From contig OZ245815.1 in the NCBI GenBank assembly GCA_965228425.1, positions 3,672,095-3,736,094 on the forward strand: DNA of 64,000 nucleotides, given 5' to 3'. The DNA is from Alphaproteobacteria bacterium. GTDB lineage: Bacteria > Pseudomonadota > Alphaproteobacteria > UBA8366. Shown piece after piece: positions 2,848 to 34,986 of the stretch. The position numbers and the translations under genes are program-made. Below the pieces are notes generated by a model. That model had not been told where the DNA came from. It was given only the letters and a program-made list of their open reading frames with translations, and ran no database searches. Every line of letters starts with the position of its first letter. Position 1 is the stretch's first letter.

Positions 2848-4677
2848 CTAACGGGTCCTGAAGAGAAAGACACCGTCGATATGGCTGATATCGGTTTCGC
2901 CCCCACGCAACGCGCCGTTCAGGGACATGACCACCAAGCGCACCTGAAGCGGGCCGTCCGCCGCCTCCAAGGTGACACGCGCGGAATCCGTCAGCCGCTG
3001 CGTCGCAACACCGGAAAACACATCGAGCCGTTTGGCGAGCTGGCGAAGGTCGAAACGGACCGTCCGATCGGCGGCATCCCGGACCGTCACAATGCCTGTG
3101 CTTTGCTCAAAGCCGACGCGGTAACTCTCGCCGGTGGACGGCGCCACAACCATTCGATCCGCCGTCTTCCGCCAAAACCGGAGGCGCATCATGACATCAT
3201 AGCCCGATACGGGGAGCGCCAACGGCTCCGTCAGGTTTACCCTGAATTCCGGCTGTATTTGCCAATTGCCTACAAATGGCAGTCCAAGCGCTTCGACGAA
3301 TTCCTTGGTGTTCCAATCGTCCGACAGCCCCAGCTCGGATTCGCGGCCGTCCAGCCAATCGATGAAACGCTGCCGGCGGTGCGTGGCGACGAGATAAGCG
3401 ACGATTCCGCTGATTCGTTTGCTCGTTTCGAATGGGACCGATTTGCCCGGCCGCACCAAGCCATCCTTCGTCAGATACCCATTCTCGGCCAATATCGGCT
3501 CGAGCCGTGCGATCTGACTTCGGATCGACGTTTCGACCGCCCCCCAAGGACCGGCGCTGGCAAGCGTTAGAAGCACCCCCAGCAGCAACGGCGCAACGAC
3601 CAAGCGCCGGCCGCCAAAGCTGAAGGATAGCGCCAGCACGAACAGCCAACCTGTCAACAAAATCAACAGATAGCGTTCTTCCGTTAAACCATAGGCGCCG
3701 ACCCGGACACCGACCGCGATCGCCAATAACCCTGCCGGCAGAAACAGGGCCGGAAAGAAGCCGCGATCGAACAACCGGAGCAGGCGATTGCCAGTTCCCC
3801 GCAATGGATAGATCGTCAGCTTCGTTGCGACGCCGACCAGCGCGAACCAGCAGACGAGCCAGGCGATCTGCCCCTTCGGCAGGTTCCATTCGACGCCAAT
3901 CTTGACCGCAAATGCATAGAGGATCACGAGATAGACCGACGCGAGCGGCACGTAGACATATCGCGCGATGAAGCCAATCCAACGGGGACAATAGTCGCCT
4001 TCCGGCGCGTCGAAACCCGGCGGCATGGAACTGAGCGCGCGCCACGGCCATACCAGGCAAAAACAGACGATCCAGATGTCGCTGCTCAGCTGGCGCGGCA
4101 CGTCGATCCCGAACAATTCCTCCAACGCCAGCAATACGGCATTGAGCCCGGCGCCGAGGATCACCGCCACGGTGAAGCCGAAGATCATGCCGGTCAGCGC
4201 GACCCTGTTGAAATCCCACAACGCCGCATTGCCCAATTCCCCGGCGCGATAGGGGGTCGCCATGATCAGGAACACGAAACCGGCGAATAGAAAGGCCATC
4301 GCGGGGTCGGGGAAGAAGTCATGGCCGGCGGTCCACGAATTGCCGACCACGATTGCGGTGAGTGCGAGCAGCACTATCGCCAAAGCGATACCGAGGGCCC
4401 CTCCGACGCCCCCTACATCCACACCGCGCCGTTCGGCCACGAGCTTCGCCAACAGCGTTGCGAAGAATCCCAAGATCAGGAACTGTATCGCTTGACTGTT
4501 GAGAAGTACGCCGCCCAGCAGTTCGACCTTGTGCTCCTCGGCCAAACCGAACACGGTCGCACCGCAAGCGGCGGCGGCGGGGAGCGGAAACCGCCGTGAC
4601 GCGGTCAGCGCCTCGTCGGCAAGATCGCGCAGGGACGGCAATCGCAAACGTTTAAACACGGGTGGGTCCTTTGACAT
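2848..4677 (-). CDS. large polytopic membrane protein (DUF4153-like) with a C-terminal soluble domain
   Basis: 609-aa ORF with high GC3, more than 10 hydrophobic segments and then a ~200-aa hydrophilic tail. The family name is recalled from similar annotated proteins and is not verified. Confidence 0.55.
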   Translation of the reverse strand: MSKDPPVFKRLRLPSLRDLADEALTASRRFPLPAAAACGATVFGLAEEHKVELLGGVLLNSQAIQFLILGFFATLLAKLVAERRGVDVGGVGGALGIALAIVLLALTAIVVGNSWTAGHDFFPDPAMAFLFAGFVFLIMATPYRAGELGNAALWDFNRVALTGMIFGFTVAVILGAGLNAVLLALEELFGIDVPRQLSSDIWIVCFCLVWPWRALSSMPPGFDAPEGDYCPRWIGFIARYVYVPLASVYLVILYAFAVKIGVEWNLPKGQIAWLVCWFALVGVATKLTIYPLRGTGNRLLRLFDRGFFPALFLPAGLLAIAVGVRVGAYGLTEERYLLILLTGWLFVLALSFSFGGRRLVVAPLLLGVLLTLASAGPWGAVETSIRSQIARLEPILAENGYLTKDGLVRPGKSVPFETSKRISGIVAYLVATHRRQRFIDWLDGRESELGLSDDWNTKEFVEALGLPFVGNWQIQPEFRVNLTEPLALPVSGYDVMMRLRFWRKTADRMVVAPSTGESYRVGFEQSTGIVTVRDAADRTVRFDLRQLAKRLDVFSGVATQRLTDSARVTLEAADGPLQVRLVVMSLNGALRGGETDISHIDGVFLFRTR

Positions 4678-9533: not shown

Positions 9534-10433
9534 ATGGCCGACCAATCGTGGTTTTCCGATTTTCCGGAAATGGACCGGGCCGATCTTGTTGCCCTTCGCA
9601 AGTTCCTCGACAACGCCTATCGGGAGTTCTCCCGGTCTTACGGCGACGGCGTCGAGACGTTCTTCAGTCCGCTTCTGTATTTCCTGGTGTGGTTCGAGAA
9701 ACTCCTGCTGGCGACGCCGTGGCTTTTGGTGATCGCGGTCCTGGTCGGCATCGCCTATCGGGTGAGTCGCTCGATCAAGCTGACGGCGGGCGTCACCCTC
9801 GCCTTTTTGCTGATCGGGTATTTCGGCATGTGGGACGACACCATGCGGACCCTCAGTATCATCACCGTGGCGACGCTGCTGTCGATTATCCTGGGTGTTC
9901 CCATCGGAATCATGATGGCGCGCTCGGACCGGGTGCAGAAAATGATCACGCCGATCCTGGATATCATGCAGACGATGCCGGCCTTCGTGTATCTGATCCC
10001 GGTTGTCATGCTGTTGGGTATCGGCAAGGTGCCCGGCGTCATCGCCGTGGTCGTCTATGCCATCCCGCCGCTGATCCGGCTGACCAATCTCGGCATCCGG
10101 CTGGTCGACCGGGATGTACAGGAAGCCGCCGTCGCCTTTGGCGCGAAACCCTTGCAGCGCCTGCTCAGCGTTCAACTGCCGCTGGCGACTCCGACGATCA
10201 TGGCGGGCATCAACCAGACCATCATGATGGCGCTGGGCATGGTGGTCATCGCGTCGATGATTGGGGTGCAAGGCCTGGGGCAACCGGTGTTGAAATCGAT
10301 CACCAACCAGTATTTCACGATGGGCTTACTCAATGGTCTCGCCATTGTCGCCATCGCAATCACCTTCGACCGCATTTCGCAGGCCTACGCGAAGCGCAGC
10401 CAGCAGCACCTGCAAGGCGCGCCCGGTGACTGA
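9534..10433 (+). CDS. proW: betaine-type ABC transporter permease
   Basis: ProW-like TM pattern and the EAA-type loop AVAFGAKPLQRLLSVQLPLATPTIMAGINQ. ATG at 9534 is preceded by AAGGA; the ORF opens at TTG 9510. Confidence 0.88.
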   Translation: MADQSWFSDFPEMDRADLVALRKFLDNAYREFSRSYGDGVETFFSPLLYFLVWFEKLLLATPWLLVIAVLVGIAYRVSRSIKLTAGVTLAFLLIGYFGMWDDTMRTLSIITVATLLSIILGVPIGIMMARSDRVQKMITPILDIMQTMPAFVYLIPVVMLLGIGKVPGVIAVVVYAIPPLIRLTNLGIRLVDRDVQEAAVAFGAKPLQRLLSVQLPLATPTIMAGINQTIMMALGMVVIASMIGVQGLGQPVLKSITNQYFTMGLLNGLAIVAIAITFDRISQAYAKRSQQHLQGAPGD

Positions 10434-17093: not shown

Positions 17094-17186
17094 TTACGCC
17101 CTGTCGCGGTCCACCTCCGTGAAATCGTCCTCGGCCGCAAAAAGCGCCTCGATGACCGGGCAAACCGCCACCGCGCCGTCTTCGCA
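17094..17186 (-). pseudogene. in-frame post-stop continuation of the MerR gene, encoding the missing C-x7-C metal loop
   Basis: My own translation of the minus strand directly after TAA (17189-17187) gives CEDGAVAVCPVIEALFAAEDDFTEVDRDRA, then TAA at 17096-17094. The C-x7-C-P-V-I-E-A-L pattern is CueR-type. GC3 stays high. Confidence 0.7.
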
Positions 17187-17537
17187 TTACTCGGCCAGCT
17201 GCCGCAACGCGCGGTCCATTCGCTCCAGATCATCGATTTTCCGCCGGATATCCCGGGCATGGGCCAACGTGATCTCCCGCACCTGCTCGCAGCTCGGCGC
17301 CCCCGCACCGGTTAGACCGAGAAGGCTGCGGATTTCATCCAGCGAAAAGCCCAGATTTCGGGCGCGGCGGATGAATACCAACCGCTTCACATGCTCCGGG
17401 GCATACAGCCGGTGCCGCCCGGCGGTCCGCGGCGGCGGGGACAGCAGCCCGATTCGCTCGTAGTAGCGGATCGTCTCGACCTTGCAGCCGGATATCCGCG
17501 ACACCTCGCCGATGGCCAACGATGTCTGTTCGGTCAT
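17187..17537 (-). CDS. MerR-family (CueR/HmrR-like) regulator, truncated at 116 aa by a TAA in front of its metal-binding loop
   Basis: wHTH LAIGEVSRISGCKVETIRYYERIGLL, then RRARNLGFSLDEIRSLL and the dimerisation helix, ending ...ALRQLAE-TAA. See the separate feature and finding for the in-frame continuation. Confidence 0.85.
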   Translation of the reverse strand: MTEQTSLAIGEVSRISGCKVETIRYYERIGLLSPPPRTAGRHRLYAPEHVKRLVFIRRARNLGFSLDEIRSLLGLTGAGAPSCEQVREITLAHARDIRRKIDDLERMDRALRQLAE

Positions 17538-17548
17538 GAATTTCGCCC

Positions 17549-17579
17549 TTGAATCTATAGTCGCTACAGATTGTATGGT
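17549..17579 (+). promoter_or_regulatory. MerR-type promoter/operator for the merF-like operon
   Basis: -35 TTGAAT (17549-17554), a 19-bp spacer, and -10 TATGGT (17574-17579). The spacer holds the dyad ATCTATAG-tcg-CTACAGAT (17553-17571, one mismatch). It sits in the divergent MerR/merF intergenic region. Confidence 0.7.
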
Positions 17580-17642
17580 GATCGCCAGCCCATTCAAGAC
17601 GGCACACAAATTTACAATGTTCTGAAACGGACCGGCCGAACC

Positions 17643-17849
17643 ATGAACAACCAATCCCTTCTGCGCACCGGCGTCATCGGAAGCACCGTCGCGGCGATCT
17701 GCTGCTTCACGCCGGCGCTGGTCATTTTGTTCGGTGCGCTCGGCCTGTCCTCGATGGTCGGTATCCTCGATTATGTGCTGCTGCCAGCCTTGGCAGTCTT
17801 CCTGGCGATCACGGGCTACGCGCTCTGGAAACGGCGGGAGGCAAGCTGA
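17643..17849 (+). CDS. merF: MerF-like mercuric/heavy-metal ion transporter (2 TM, single vicinal Cys pair)
   Basis: LLRTGVIGSTVAAICCFTPALVILFGALGLSSMVGILDYVLLPALAVF closely matches my recollection of MerF (LLRVSIIGTTLVALCCFTPVLVILLG...LDYVLLPALAIF). It ends at KRREAS without the C-terminal CC pair. Confidence 0.75.
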   Translation: MNNQSLLRTGVIGSTVAAICCFTPALVILFGALGLSSMVGILDYVLLPALAVFLAITGYALWKRREAS

Positions 17850-18067
17850 TGCACGTTTTCTCGACCCTCACCTGCCCCGACTGCGGTTACAAAAGCCTCG
17901 AAGAGATGCCGACGAACGCTTGCGTCTATTTTCACGAATGCAACTCCTGCAAGACGCTGCTCAAGCCGCAACCGGGCGACTGCTGCGTCTTCTGCTCCTA
18001 CGGCGACGTACCCTGCCCGCCGATCCAGACCGGCGGCGGATGCTGCGGCGTGGGCGAGCCGGGTTAA
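17849..18067 (+). CDS. GDCCVxC-domain Cys-rich small protein (11 Cys in 72 aa)
   Basis: CPDC...C...ECNSC...GDCCVFC...CPP...GGGCCG. Its ATG shares one nt with the merF-like TGA (TGATG at 17847-17851), consistent with translational coupling. Confidence 0.75.
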   Translation: MHVFSTLTCPDCGYKSLEEMPTNACVYFHECNSCKTLLKPQPGDCCVFCSYGDVPCPPIQTGGGCCGVGEPG

Positions 18068-18519
18068 GCCCGCTTTTCCGGCTTGCCGTGATCGTCGGTG
18101 AGACAATGATCGTGGGTGTAGTCCGACAGGACTTCGATGACGCGGCAGTCGCCGACCTGGCCGTGGCGGCAATCGTGGACCATGCGCTCCAACTCGGTTT
18201 TCAAAGCGTTCAGGCGTTCGATCCGCGCCTCCACCGCCGCCAGGTGCTCGCGGGCGATGCGGTCGACATCGGCGCAGGGGCGTTCGGGATCGTCGCTCAA
18301 CGCCAGCATTTCACGGATCTGGTCGAGCGGAAATCCCAGCTCGCGGGCATGGCGGATGAACCCGAGGCGGGCGATATGCGCCGGTCCGTAGCGGCGCTGG
18401 TTCCCGGATGTCCGTAACGGGGCCGGCATAAGGCCGACCTCCTCGTAATAGCGGACCGTTTGCACCTTACAGCCGGTTTCCCGGGCCAGAACGCCGATAG
18501 AGAGGACTTTGCCGTCCAT
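18064..18519 (-). CDS. MerR-family heavy-metal-responsive regulator (ZntR/CadR-like, full length)
   Basis: wHTH IGVLARETGCKVQTVRYYEEVGLM, Cys at RPCADV, and a C-terminal Cys/His loop HDCRHGQVGDCRVIEVLSDYTHDHC. Confidence 0.88.
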   Translation of the reverse strand: MDGKVLSIGVLARETGCKVQTVRYYEEVGLMPAPLRTSGNQRRYGPAHIARLGFIRHARELGFPLDQIREMLALSDDPERPCADVDRIAREHLAAVEARIERLNALKTELERMVHDCRHGQVGDCRVIEVLSDYTHDHCLTDDHGKPEKRA

Positions 18520-18531
18520 GTCGTTTTCCCC

Positions 18532-18562
18532 TTGAACCTACAGTCACTGTAGATATTAGGAT
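18532..18562 (+). promoter_or_regulatory. MerR-type promoter/operator for the CDF transporter gene
   Basis: -35 TTGAAC (18532-18537), a 19-bp spacer, and -10 TAGGAT (18557-18562). A perfect dyad CTACAGT-c-ACTGTAG lies at 18538-18552. Confidence 0.7.
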
Positions 18563-18611
18563 CACGTCGTAGAAAACAAGGATTGTCCGAAACTGCGCTT
18601 CCGGAGCCATC

Positions 18612-19259
18612 ATGGCGGGTTGCTGTGACCGTAACGTGACTTTCGACGGATCATCGCCGGCGTACCGGCGCGTTCTTTGGATCGTCATCGCCATCAACGC
18701 GGTGATGTTCGTCGTCGAGATGTCGGCGGGCGCCGCCGCCGGGTCGAAGGCGCTGCAAGCCGACGCCCTCGATTTCCTCGGCGACACGCTGACCTATGGG
18801 CTCAGCCTCTACGTCATCGGCAAATCGGTGCGCATGCGGGCGACTGCGGCGCTGATGAAGGGCGTTTCCCTCGCCCTGATGGGCATCGGCGTCTTGGGAT
18901 GGACGATCTATCAGACCTTCATCCTCGGTGTGCCTGACGCGATGGTGATGAGCGGCGTCGCCTTCCTCGCCTTCGCGGCCAATATAGTGTGCGCGCTGTT
19001 GCTGCTGAAGTTCCGGGACGGCGATTCGAATGTGCGCTCGGTCTGGCTGTGCAGCCGTAACGATGCGATCGGCAACGTTGCGGTGATTGGCGCGGCGGGC
19101 GTGGTCCTCCTGACCGGCAGCGCATGGCCCGATCTGATCGTCGCCGCGGCGATGGCCGCGTTATTCCTGCAGTCGTCGATCAAGATCATCCGCCAGGCGA
19201 CGACTGAGTTGCGCTTGGTGCGCGCCGACGCGGAAGCTTCCGCCGGTACTGCGGATTAG
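18612..19259 (+). CDS. cation diffusion facilitator (CDF) transporter, short form without a cytoplasmic C-terminal domain
   Basis: 6 TM. TM2 carries ALQADALDFLGD and TM5 carries RNDAIGN (site-A-like residues). N-terminus is MAGCC. The protein ends ~20 aa after TM6. Confidence 0.8.
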   Translation: MAGCCDRNVTFDGSSPAYRRVLWIVIAINAVMFVVEMSAGAAAGSKALQADALDFLGDTLTYGLSLYVIGKSVRMRATAALMKGVSLALMGIGVLGWTIYQTFILGVPDAMVMSGVAFLAFAANIVCALLLLKFRDGDSNVRSVWLCSRNDAIGNVAVIGAAGVVLLTGSAWPDLIVAAAMAALFLQSSIKIIRQATTELRLVRADAEASAGTAD

Positions 19260-20254
19260 GAGAGACCGGGCGTCCGCTCCAACGCCGCCAGGAACAGCAA
19301 CGCGCCGATCGTCACCACGAACAACGCCCCCAGCATGCCGACCCCCCGTAGGATCAACGGCTGGGCCGCGCCGTGCGCGTCAGTGGCGTGGATAATCGTG
19401 CGCCGCGCGCCGATGGCTAGCAGGCCCACGATCGAGACGGTGATCGCGACCCCGAACGCCATGGCCAGCGCGCCGAGAATTCCGACCGCATAAAGGCCGT
19501 TCGCCATGGTGAACAGCAGCAGAATGATCGCGCCGCTGCACGGCCGGATACCGGCGGCGAGCGCGGCCACGATCATATCTCGACCTTCTCGGTACCAGGG
19601 GACGTCCCCGCCCGAATGATGGTGACCGTGACTGTGTCCCTGACCATGGTGATGATCGTCGCCCGGGCCGTGTGAATGATCGCAGTCCTTGCCGCGAAAC
19701 GCGCCCCAGGCCATGTACAACCCAAGCAGGATCACCAATGCATAGCTGACGAGTTCGATGGTAACGGCGTAGCCCAACACCTGAATGCGGCCGAACCCCA
19801 TCGCGAAGACCAGGACGAAGACGATGACGATCGCCGACACGGCCTGCGTCAACGCAATCAGGCCGCTCATGATGATGCCGTGCGACACCGGGCCGTTGCG
19901 CGCCAGGAAGTAGCTGGTGACGATAAACTTGCCGTGCCCCGGCCCTGCGGCATGGAAGACGCCGTACAGGAAGGCCACGCCGATGACGATCAACGCCGGC
20001 AGAAGCGAGTCCGACGTTTCGATTTCTTTCAGCTTGGCGTGGAGGTCCTTGTTCAGGTCACGCTGCACGGCGGCGATCTTGAGCAGAAGCCCCCGATAGG
20101 ACCGCTCGAGCGCGCCCGGCGGGGTCGCCGGTGCCTCGGTTTCAGTGGCTTTCGGGGCAAACGGATTGCCCGCGTCGGACGCCTGCGCCACGCCTGCGCT
20201 CAAGACGCCGAACCCGACAACCATCAAAAAGGAAATCGCAAGGAGGCGGATCAT
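19256..20254 (-). CDS. nickel/cobalt transporter, RcnA/HoxN-like permease with a His-rich loop
   Basis: FLYGVFHAAGPGHGK motif, loop DCDHSHGPGDDHHHGQGHSHGHHHSGG, and GIRPCSGAI. The ATG at 20254 is adjacent to the DUF1007 gene stop. Confidence 0.8.
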   Translation of the reverse strand: MIRLLAISFLMVVGFGVLSAGVAQASDAGNPFAPKATETEAPATPPGALERSYRGLLLKIAAVQRDLNKDLHAKLKEIETSDSLLPALIVIGVAFLYGVFHAAGPGHGKFIVTSYFLARNGPVSHGIIMSGLIALTQAVSAIVIVFVLVFAMGFGRIQVLGYAVTIELVSYALVILLGLYMAWGAFRGKDCDHSHGPGDDHHHGQGHSHGHHHSGGDVPWYREGRDMIVAALAAGIRPCSGAIILLLFTMANGLYAVGILGALAMAFGVAITVSIVGLLAIGARRTIIHATDAHGAAQPLILRGVGMLGALFVVTIGALLFLAALERTPGLS

Positions 20255-20255
20255 C

Positions 20256-20879
20256 TCAGCTCGTTGCGCAGAGAACATCGACCTTTTTCGGAATAACCAT
20301 GTCGAAATAGATCGGGTTCTCCGCGTCGTCGCCCACCTTGAAATGACAGGCCCGGCCGCTCTCGCCGGTGAACCGCACCGGGTCCATCTCGTCATGGACG
20401 ACGGAGACATAGAAGGTTGCGTCATACACGCCGAAACTCAGCGTGCTCCGGCGCGGATCGACCGGCTCATCGAACGGAACGGTGAAGGAATAGCTGACCC
20501 GCCCATCCTTCGCGACGGCGGCAAAATCCGTAACCCGCGGCGCCGGCAGAAGCTTCCCGTCAACCCGGATATGCGTGAAATACCGCAACTCCTTCAGCGC
20601 GCTGAACGCGCCCGCCTGCAACGCTGCGATCTCGCCCTTGTGGAAGGACTTGTCCTTGTCCTTGTCGAAATCCTCGAACAGCAGGAAGCTGAAAATCTCA
20701 TCGAAAGTCCAGTGGAAGCGCAGGCCGGTGATCTTTCCGTTCTCGAACTGAACGTAGGAGACATTATCGATGAAGACATGCGGATGGGCATCCGCCGACG
20801 GCCCCGCCGCCATCGTCAGCCAGGCACCGACGACGGTGAGCATTGCGACTCGATACGCCTTTTGAAACCGATGCTTCAT
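20256..20879 (-). CDS. DUF1007-family periplasmic protein (partner of the Ni/Co permease)
   Basis: Signal peptide followed by DAHPHVFIDN...LRFHWTFDEIFS, characteristic of DUF1007. It lies immediately upstream of the permease. Confidence 0.75.
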   Translation of the reverse strand: MKHRFQKAYRVAMLTVVGAWLTMAAGPSADAHPHVFIDNVSYVQFENGKITGLRFHWTFDEIFSFLLFEDFDKDKDKSFHKGEIAALQAGAFSALKELRYFTHIRVDGKLLPAPRVTDFAAVAKDGRVSYSFTVPFDEPVDPRRSTLSFGVYDATFYVSVVHDEMDPVRFTGESGRACHFKVGDDAENPIYFDMVIPKKVDVLCATS

Positions 20880-20965
20880 GATCGACGGTACCCTATCTGC
20901 CCCACCGGAAAGTGCAAGCATGAACAAACCGGATTAATAATTGATTTATGGTGAATGCCTCGAAA

Positions 20966-32586: not shown

Positions 32587-34260
32587 ATGCACGACCTGAT
32601 CATTCGGAGCGCGTCGTTTATCGATGGCCTCGGCGGGGCCCCGAAAACCGCCGATCTGGCGGTGACGGGCGGCCGTATCGCTGAAATCGGCACGGTCTCC
32701 GGTCCGGCGCACGAAACCGTCGATGCCGCGGGCCTTTCCCTTATGCCGGGCATCATCGACGTCCATACGCACTACGACGCACAGCTCACCTGGGATCCGC
32801 AATGCTCGCCCTCGCCGGCGCTCGGCGTCACCACCGTCGTCATCGGCAATTGCGGTTTCGGGATCACGCCGAATGCGCCGGATACGCGGGAAACTCTCAT
32901 CAAGAATCTGTCCGAGGTCGAGGGTATGTCGCTGACCGCCTTGCGGGCGGGTATCGATTGGCGTTTCGACGATTTCGGCGGGTATCTGGACCTCTTGGCG
33001 ACCCGCGGCGTGGTGCCCAACGTCGCCGCCTTCGCCTGCCATTCCAGCATCCGTGTCGCGGTGCTTGGCGACGATGCCTCGACACGCGCTGCTACCGACG
33101 CCGAAATCGATCAAATGGCGACGATCCTGCGGGATGCCCTCAACGCGGGCGCGATCGGTTTCGCCTCCTCCACTTTCGAGAACCACAACGGGTTCGGCGG
33201 CCTGCCGATGCCGTCGCGCCTTGCCGAAGAATCCGAATTCGAACGCCTGATCGACGAACTCGGATCCGCGGGCCAGGGCTTGTTCATGGTCACCGCCGGC
33301 GAGCGCACCACCATCGATACCCTGACCGGCTATTCCCGGCGCAGTGGCCGGCCCATGGTCTACGCCGCGCTGTTGCACAACAGCCAGGTGCCGGAACGCA
33401 CCCGGTCGGTCCTATCGGGGTGTCGGGCCGCTCAATTGGCCGACGTCCCGGTCTATGCGCAGGTGTCCTGTCAGCCGCTGAGCATGAATTTCTCGCTCGA
33501 CGCCGCCTACCCGCTCTACGGCGTCGACCCGTGGGGATCGCTGCCGATCGACGATCCAGCGGTACTGCGCACGGCCCTCGCCGATCCCAATTTCCGCGAC
33601 CAATTCCGGCGCAGTCTGACGCAACCGGTCGGCGGCCGGTTGTTCAACGGCGATTGGGATCGAGTCGAGGTTGCGGTCTGTGCGTCTCATCCGGATTACG
33701 AAGGCCAATCCATTCCGGCGCTGGCCGAAAAAGGAGGGGTCGATGCCGTCGATTTCTTCTTCGATCTCGCCTTATCCGAAGACCTGGCGACCGTGTTCAA
33801 CGCGAAACTGCTGAATGTGGACGAGGACGCGGTCGGCGATATCCTGCAGCATCCGGACAGCCTGATCAGCCTGTCGGACGCTGGGGCGCACCTGACCTTC
33901 TTTTGTGACGCGGGCTATGGCCTGCACCTGCTCGGCCATTGGGTGCGGGAGCGCGGTGACTTCGAGATCGGCGAAGCGGTCCGCCAGATCACCAGCCGGC
34001 CAGCTGAGATTTACGGCATCCGCGACCGCGGCGCGCTGACCGAGGGCGCGTGGGCCGACATGCTGCTATTCGATCCCGAGACCGTCGGCATCACCGGCAT
34101 CGAACGTTTGCACGACCTCCCCGCCGGTCAAAGCCGCCTCGTGCGGCAAGGGCTCGGCGTGAGGGGCGTATGGGTCAACGGCACGCTGGTGCACGACGGC
34201 ACCGACTATCGCGATCACACTCGCCCGCCGGGCCAGGTTCTCACCGCGTTCGACGCGTAG
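32587..34260 (+). CDS. N-acyl-D-amino-acid deacylase (D-aminoacylase) family amidohydrolase
   Basis: DLIIRSASFIDGLG...GRIAEIG...MPGIIDVHTHYD, with SDAGAH later in the sequence. Confidence 0.85.
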   Translation: MHDLIIRSASFIDGLGGAPKTADLAVTGGRIAEIGTVSGPAHETVDAAGLSLMPGIIDVHTHYDAQLTWDPQCSPSPALGVTTVVIGNCGFGITPNAPDTRETLIKNLSEVEGMSLTALRAGIDWRFDDFGGYLDLLATRGVVPNVAAFACHSSIRVAVLGDDASTRAATDAEIDQMATILRDALNAGAIGFASSTFENHNGFGGLPMPSRLAEESEFERLIDELGSAGQGLFMVTAGERTTIDTLTGYSRRSGRPMVYAALLHNSQVPERTRSVLSGCRAAQLADVPVYAQVSCQPLSMNFSLDAAYPLYGVDPWGSLPIDDPAVLRTALADPNFRDQFRRSLTQPVGGRLFNGDWDRVEVAVCASHPDYEGQSIPALAEKGGVDAVDFFFDLALSEDLATVFNAKLLNVDEDAVGDILQHPDSLISLSDAGAHLTFFCDAGYGLHLLGHWVRERGDFEIGEAVRQITSRPAEIYGIRDRGALTEGAWADMLLFDPETVGITGIERLHDLPAGQSRLVRQGLGVRGVWVNGTLVHDGTDYRDHTRPPGQVLTAFDA

Positions 34261-34287: not shown

Positions 34288-34986
34288 ATGCGCAAGGGCT
34301 TCTCTTTTTGGCGTCTCATTCGCCGGATCGTCATCCTCATCGTGTTACTGGTTTTGGTCCTGCCGGCCGGACTGACCCTGCTGTATCGCGAAGTGGCCCC
34401 GCCCTTCACGCCGCTGATGGTGATCCGGCTATTCGAAGGCGAAGGGATCAAGTCCGAGTGGGTGCCGTTGCGGCAGATATCGCCGCATCTGATCCGCTCG
34501 GTCATCGCCCTGGAAGACAGCCGCTTTTGCAGCCATGACGGCGTCGATTGGGTCGAAATGAGCGATGCGGTGAGCGACCACCTAAAGGGTGGGCGGCTTC
34601 GCGGCGCCAGCACGATCTCGATGCAGACCGCCAAGAACCTGTTCCTCTGGCCCGGCCGGACCTTCCTGCGCAAGGCGATCGAAGCGCCGCTGACCTTCAT
34701 GATCGAAGCCATCCTCGGTAAGCGCCGCATCCTTGAAATCTATCTGAACGTGGTGGAATGGGGGCCGGGCATCTACGGGATCGAAGCCGCGTCGCGCGCC
34801 TATTTCCGAAAGCCCGCCGCCGCCCTTACCGCGTGGCAGGCAGGGCTGCTGGCCGGTATCCTGCCCAACCCGCGGCGCTGGTCGCCCCGAAAACCAACCG
34901 ATTATATCCGCAACCGCGCGCGCACCGCGATGGCCCGCTCGAAGGCGGTCGCCCCCGCGCTCAAATGCCTTCGGAAAAGCGGATAG
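34288..34986 (+). CDS. mtgA: monofunctional biosynthetic peptidoglycan transglycosylase
   Basis: IALEDSRFCSHDGVDW, GASTISMQTAKNLFL, RKAIEAPLTFMIEAILGKRRILEIYLNVVEWG. Confidence 0.92.
   Translation: MRKGFSFWRLIRRIVILIVLLVLVLPAGLTLLYREVAPPFTPLMVIRLFEGEGIKSEWVPLRQISPHLIRSVIALEDSRFCSHDGVDWVEMSDAVSDHLKGGRLRGASTISMQTAKNLFLWPGRTFLRKAIEAPLTFMIEAILGKRRILEIYLNVVEWGPGIYGIEAASRAYFRKPAAALTAWQAGLLAGILPNPRRWSPRKPTDYIRNRARTAMARSKAVAPALKCLRKSG

Follow-up and report, generated by a model that had tools for sequence, protein, structure and literature searches.

The window, by which we mean the whole 64-kb stretch of DNA that was analysed, has an overall GC content of 62.5% and contains a compact multi-metal island between recO/polysaccharide deacetylase and parC. 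A merR-type regulator gene on the minus strand, interrupted by an in-frame TAA, faces a divergent operon of merF and a gene for a GDCCVxC-domain protein (Table 1). The merF start codon is the ATG at 17643, and the gene is full-length and without a stop when compared with locus L092. The stop codon of merF overlaps the start codon of the GDCCVxC gene in an ATGA (window 17846–17852), an arrangement that suggests translational coupling of the two genes. The GDCCVxC protein carries the motif GDCCVFC, with a cysteine and not a TGA/selenocysteine, and a literature search for 'GDCCVxC' returned no papers. The module consists of merR, merF and the GDCCVxC gene only, in the window and in the orthologous loci alike, and neither merA nor merT nor merP was found anywhere in the 64-kb window. 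Cells that take up mercury but do not reduce it are expected to become more sensitive, which makes an importer with no reductase nearby odd.

The remainder of the island includes a second MerR-family gene, MerR2 (18064–18519, minus strand), which encodes 151 aa with a C-x7-C-R loop and a His/Cys-rich tail, and a divergent CDF transporter gene (18612–19259). The MerR2/CDF promoter (18533–18563, plus strand) reads TTGAAC-19 nt-TAGGAT and contains the dyad CTACAG-TCA-CTGTAG, a 'swapped-arm' version of the merR operator. A NicO gene (RcnA-like, with a His-rich loop) and a DUF1007 gene (19256–20927, minus strand) adjoin the CDF/MerR2 pair. The island is kept in all orthologous loci, where the conserved gene order is polysaccharide deacetylase, DUF1007, NicO, CDF, second MerR, GDCCVxC, MerF, merR and ParC.

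Table 1. Coordinates of the merR–merF features in the window
Feature	Position	Strand	Description
Truncated merR reading frame	17187..17537	-	116 codons: winged HTH and whole dimerisation helix including Cys83; ends in a premature TAA
Premature stop TAA, codon 117	17187..17189	-	Gln codon in orthologues
Orphaned 30-codon tail and natural TAA	17094..17186	-	Metal-binding loop C118-x7-C126-P, C-terminal helix, variable end
PmerF-like promoter toward merF	17549..17579	+	-35 TTGAAT 17549-54; 19-nt spacer 17555-73; -10 TATGGT 17574-79
Operator, 9-3-9 palindrome	17552..17572	.	AATCTGTAG-TCG-CTACAGATT in all orthologues
Window-only operator variant	17557	.	A on + strand; G in every orthologue; palindrome broken
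merR promoter-like site	17570..17597	-	TTGAAT-16 nt-TACAAT; 1 site found vs 0.1 expected
merF, 68 aa, intact, first gene of divergent operon	17643..17849	+	NCBIfam NF033565, 99.1 bits vs cutoff 50
GDCCVxC-domain protein, 72 aa, intact, Cys form	17849..18067	+	NCBIfam NF041374, 102.9 bits vs cutoff 40

Translation of the minus-strand frame from 17537 to 17187 gives a product of 116 aa with the C-terminus ALRQLAE, followed by the TAA at 17189–17187. Beyond this stop, the frame stays open for another 30 codons, beginning CEDGAVAVCPVIEAL and reading in full CEDGAVAVCPVIEALFAAEDDFTEVDRDRA, to the TAA at 17096–17094. The loop C-x7-C-P-V-I-E-A-L lies intact immediately after the premature TAA. A sequence-only reading of this DNA had proposed an in-frame TAA that cuts a MerR-family sensor directly before an intact C-x7-C loop; translation bears this out, and the coordinates and sequences it gave for merR and the tail are exact. 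The Pfam domains MerR_1, MerR and MerR-DNA-bind cover residues 9–114 of the product, with matches to PF13411 (75.3 bits), PF09278 (73.7) and PF00376 (60), all above their gathering scores, and the product belongs to the metal-sensing subgroup of the MerR family. Adding the tail raises the score of the NCBIfam MerR model TIGR02051 from 103.8 to 119.4 bits and that of the CueR model TIGR02044 from 99.7 to 116.2 bits, both of which stay under the equivalog cutoffs of 150.85 and 147.4 bits, respectively.

The open frame past the stop was rejected as evidence on its own. Extensions of at least 30 codons are normal in a GC-rich window, and the median in-frame extension past the stop is 40.5 codons among the 42 confident ORFs of the 64-kb window. 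The merR tail is significant because it is homologous to full-length relatives, not because its frame is open. The ORF at 32587–34260 was likewise considered as a second interrupted gene and rejected, since its high-GC3 extension is the next gene (34288–34986) in the same frame.

A protein search returned 12 full-length proteins, mostly of 147 aa, that are 81–91% identical to the merR product. The size of 147 aa that read-through would give, earlier judged normal for the family, equals this orthologue length. The tail aligns residue for residue with the C-termini of the 12 relatives, in which C118, C126, P127 and L132 are invariant and the stop position is occupied by Gln. The DNA comparison covered 11 syntenic orthologous loci from about eight lineages, with 84–89% nucleotide identity to the window; where the window has TAA, 10 of them read CAA and one reads CAG. 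The changed base is window position 17189, an A on the plus strand (G>A) and a T on the coding strand (C>T). Since all 11 loci read CAA or CAG with the tail conserved, the comparison shows that the window, as assembled, carries a single C>T nonsense change, Gln117 (CAA) to TAA, relative to its orthologues. The sequence-only reading had suggested looking in relatives for a sense codon one step from TAA ahead of a kept tail, and Gln (CAA/CAG) is that codon; none of the orthologues ends where the window's merR does, and all continue into a conserved tail.

We also considered a broader set of homologues. Among the 80 homologue loci listed from public assemblies, none is truncated before the loop and one has an in-frame stop. 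This one, at 3001–3378 of locus L020, is a MerR2-type homologue from the MAG 'uncultured proteobacterium MFD04463' with a stop at the invariant Gly10 (FAI*ELGRL), and reflects either an assembly error or a further case of an interrupted MerR-family gene. Three tblastn alignments contained a stop symbol; two merely run past natural stops, and the genuine one is this different, MerR2-type homologue. A peptide-pattern scan of genome contigs was used for clade context, the matches listed all being at most 59% identical and no orthologues.

The tail retains the character of coding sequence under selection. Its GC3 is 0.83, compared with 0.81 in the upstream part of merR, and dN/dS against the orthologues over codons 118–135 is 0.14–0.45, within an orthologue background whose orthologue-to-orthologue mean is 0.35. 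By these measures the merR tail is free of decay, and the stop must therefore be young compared with a divergence of dS about 0.4–0.6, if it is real at all. The high tail GC3 and the apparently recent interruption that the sequence-only reading described are thus upheld, an unreal stop being compatible with them too. Such a stop would be a base-calling or assembly error over a true CAA, leaving an intact 147-aa regulator, and we give this explanation a minority chance that deserves to be taken seriously. It requires one substitution only, and it too would be expected to leave a perfectly preserved tail. Exact-product look-ups for the 116-aa protein, MerR2 and MerF found no identical record, so that neither an identical record nor a second assembly is available to cross-check the base, and isolated stops do occur in public assemblies, as the MAG sequence in L020 illustrates (1 of the 80 homologue loci listed). 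However, 20 other syntenic genes in the neighbourhood, over about 20 kb of the window, align over their full length, free of stops and frameshifts, and this stretch is consequently neither error-ridden nor generally decaying. A G:C>A:T transition is the commonest real mutation, and this one lies outside a homopolymer. The error explanation must also contend with a second lineage-specific change, in the cognate and otherwise invariant operator, which is easier to understand as real relaxed or altered selection. We infer that the base call at 17189 is right.

A functional 147-aa sensor might also be made from the interrupted frame if readthrough, recoding or a suppressor tRNA allowed translation to pass the stop. 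The intact, coding-like tail is what this would call for, but the bypass is scarcely credible in this window, where TAA is a regular terminator that ends at least 11 long ORFs as well as merR at its own natural end, and the orthologues too; the same count led us to reject a reassignment of the stop codon. The base directly 3′ of the premature TAA is T, and in E. coli a T after TAA makes for strong termination. No orthologue has a stop at position 117, so there is no sign of a conserved recoding site, and the Rfam and tRNA scans of the window found nothing relevant. The sequence-only reading had likewise thought readthrough unlikely, and these observations agree with it. A literature search on MerR and nonsense mutation returned nothing relevant.

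We now consider which metal the uninterrupted regulator would sense. The sequence-only reading labelled the gene as CueR-type, a sensor of monovalent metals, and the CueR/HmrR-type reading for Cu(I)/Ag(I)/Au(I) has some appeal. The loop C118-x7-C126 has the same spacing as that of E. coli CueR (PDB 1Q05), whose 7-residue C-x7-C loop is followed by CP-I-I-E-x-L and whose fold is the same, and the score of the CueR model comes close to that of the MerR model (116.2 vs 119.4 bits). With both scores under their equivalog cutoffs, however, the models do not decide for CueR, and four other comparisons point away from it, towards a mercury-type sensor of divalent metal. The position of CueR Ser77 is Cys83 in the merR product, and C83, C118 and C126 are invariant in 52 homologues. 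The PDB ranking places MerR 4UA1 first (6.6e-29), followed by CadR, PbrR, Tn501 MerR and only then CueR. The genes adjoining merR are merF and GDCCVxC, with no copA-like gene adjacent, whereas CueR controls copA/cueO. Finally, the clade co-occurs with merT/P/A. On these comparisons the CueR label finds no support, and we consider a CueR-type sensor very improbable.

The last of these comparisons rests on the clade context, counted over 80 listed genome loci (L001–L080) whose homologues are 45–59% identical. Among C-x7-C-P homologues, 15 of the 19 loci listed have merT, merP, merA, merF or GDCCVxC within 3 kb, merA being counted in these neighbourhoods with its C-terminal CC pair; for C-x7-C-R homologues, the type of the neighbouring MerR2, 33 of the 37 loci listed have no such mer gene. 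Complete-looking mer operons (merT/merP/merA) flank a 7-residue-loop, three-cysteine MerR in several loci, for example L005, L022, L025, L027, L031 and L042.

The selectivity of these sensors for +1 or +2 ions is set by the residue inserted from the partner subunit, which is Ser77 in CueR and a Cys in CadR, ZntR and MerR (PMC9909328). The trigonal Hg ligands of Bacillus megaterium MerR are Cys79, Cys114 and Cys123, of which the other subunit supplies Cys79 (PMC4551924), and those of Tn501 MerR are Cys82, Cys117 and Cys126 (PMC5027573). C83, C118 and C126 of merR align to the 4UA1 ligands Cys79/114/123; all three are present in the reading frame and in the orthologues, and the encoded 116-aa product keeps only C83. 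As with the Hg(II)-bound MerR of B. megaterium (4UA1/4UA2) and Tn501 MerR (5CRL), the merR product has a winged HTH and a long antiparallel coiled coil, and CP[VIL]I follows the last cysteine. Judged by sequence, merR is shown to fall within a mercury-type, three-cysteine, C-x7-C-P subclade of the MerR family.

The genetic setting resembles that of Hg(II)-MerR systems as well: a divergent mer transport gene, here a mercury transporter gene that begins the target operon, overlapping divergent promoters with a spacer in the 19–20 bp range (19 nt here), and a palindromic, dyad operator. It differs from them in that the loop spacer has 7 and not 8 residues, the score lies below the NCBIfam cutoff, merA, merT and merP are lacking nearby, and the window's protein is cut before Cys118. 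The 8-residue spacer is considered necessary for trigonal Hg coordination, with 7 residues being too short (Chang et al., PMC4551924). Because of the sub-cutoff scores, the 7-residue spacer and the lack of merA/T/P within 64 kb, Hg(II) as the sensed metal is a best guess from context.

The promoter facing merF was read directly from the sequence, the consensus scanner allowing only spacers of 16–18 nt and thus being unable to report one of 19. Its elements are conserved in the 11 orthologous loci, and the 19-nt-spacer promoter on which the sequence-only reading expected the regulator to act is present ahead of merF as TTGAAT-19 nt-TATGGT. The merR promoter-like site is also conserved in the orthologues, and its -10 overlaps the PmerF -10. 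As read from sequence, the divergent overlapping promoters have the classical mer arrangement. A GANTC (CcrM-type) site, GAATC at 17551–17555, overlaps the PmerF -35.

The operator is invariant but for its central base in all orthologous loci (the 11 loci and L088–L090), even where the flanks have diverged, and operator-probe scans of genome and metagenome contigs returned orthologues only, all with the perfect palindrome. The operator beside merR is kept despite an expanded merF–merR spacer in L094, where an additional 89-aa thioredoxin_3-like gene (9632–9901) lies between merF and merR, and in L095–L097 (about 3620–4000), where the spacer is about 380 bp compared with 105 bp in the window. 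In the window, the left operator arm is AATCTATAG, with an A at 17557. The half-site CTATAG that results lies a single step away from the CTGTAG of MerR1 and likewise from the CTACAG of MerR2/CDF. The window therefore differs from every relative at two sites with a functional link, the stop codon of the sensor and the sensor's operator, both changes being G>A on the plus strand. The operator change could reflect relaxed selection, compensation or coincidence. The variant sits 2 nt from the GAATC site, and methylation-related miscalls in GANTC contexts are known in nanopore data, a proximity that lends the error explanation some support; the site could be relevant to regulation or, if the assembly is nanopore-based, to methylation-linked miscalls.

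The consequences of the truncation can be considered with a structural model. In the AlphaFold (AF2) model of orthologue P0001 (pLDDT 86.6), helices span residues 9–16, 20–28, 47–61 and 66–72, the dimerisation helix runs from 83 to 117, the loop from 118 to 126 and the last helix from 127 to 145. In this model the premature stop coincides precisely with the C-terminus of the dimerisation helix. Apo MerR proteins bind the operator and repress, with the loop disordered; metal binding folds the loop, which drives activation, and the folded loop acts as a wedge between the dimerisation helix and the DNA-binding domain that brings about the activating DNA distortion (PMC4551924; PMC9909328).

We propose that the C>T change at 17189 turned Gln117 (CAA) into TAA in the source genome alone. 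The 116-aa product would keep the winged HTH, the coiled coil and Cys83, and would lose Cys118, Cys126 and the C-terminal helix. The inter-subunit thiolate site and the loop 'wedge' could then not form, and the protein would not be converted to an activator; because two of the three ligands and the wedge are missing, activation should be impossible. The most likely outcome would be a dimeric, operator-binding, metal-blind protein that is functionally like MerD or an apo-locked MerR. Under its control, PmerF would be held at or below its weak basal level, merR would still be autoregulated, and merF-GDCCVxC would no longer be inducible. Taken as a whole, the explanation that a real and recent mutation has produced a metal-blind, MerD-like repressor is the one we favour and consider reasonably probable. 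Our probabilities for this explanation and for the alternatives are not mutually exclusive shares of one whole.

MerD is an effector-less MerR-type protein that represses. The predicted 116-aa product, like MerD and CvkR, combines a MerR-type HTH with a coiled coil in about 120 aa and lacks the metal-binding cysteines, and by analogy with MerD one would expect it to occupy the same operator but not to activate. The 116-aa protein is likely to be stable and DNA-binding, with repression persisting, since MerD and other MerR-type proteins that lack an effector site share this make-up and repress. The resemblance to MerD is functional only. MerD has a dedicated gene, whereas the product derives from a sensor gene through a nonsense mutation; no full-length MerR accompanies it as a partner on its operator, and the MerD models score it far below their cutoffs (TIGR02054, 25.4 bits vs 103.65; NF033783, 21.1 bits vs 170). 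MerR variants with substitutions at C117 or C126, reported in 1989 by Shewchuk et al. and Ross et al., are said to be activation-deficient and repression-proficient. In these mutants, which PMC5027573 cites, the loss of the MerR loop cysteines reportedly abolishes the Hg response. They are point substitutions in a full-length protein, whereas the truncated product lacks the loop altogether, together with the last helix.

The C-terminal helix (residues 127–145) packs close to the DNA-binding domain of the partner, and its loss could leave the product unstable and make a real mutation a null allele. The protein would then be unstable or non-binding, merF-GDCCVxC would be expressed at an unregulated basal level, and pseudogenisation would be beginning. 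The change at an otherwise invariant operator position fits relaxed selection on the regulator–operator pair, and the variant at 17557 might already be weakening binding. We nevertheless think a null allele rather unlikely, because merF and the GDCCVxC gene are intact and full-length, the complete HTH and the entire coiled-coil helix are retained, and natural effector-less MerR-family proteins bind DNA and repress (MerD; CvkR, reported in bioRxiv 10.1101/2022.05.13.491168).

A more ambitious interpretation would join the nonsense codon and the operator change as two halves of one adaptive rewiring of merF-GDCCVxC control. A MerD-like repressor would stop Hg-induced MerF import where no mercuric reductase is nearby, and the half-site moved to CTATAG would retune the control of merF-GDCCVxC or hand it over. 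We regard this combined proposal, in both its parts, as improbable.

Returning to the metal-blind repressor that we favour, the finding is an ordinary one and no new system: a mercury-type merR, a gene of a known kind, that carries either a nonsense allele specific to its lineage or a miscall. The co-occurring operator change is its only mildly intriguing element. Its importance beyond annotation is slight: the gene is a merR-type regulator, not cueR, and should be flagged as interrupted or as a pseudogene, and merF-GDCCVxC should not be taken for granted as metal-inducible in the source organism. Provided that the truncation is genuine and its product stable, a natural MerR sensor would have become a pure repressor by one base change. 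Of more general use may be the mer-linked, three-cysteine MerR with a CueR-length, 7-residue loop, whose consistent mer linkage conflicts with the structural argument for an 8-residue loop in trigonal Hg coordination (PMC4551924).
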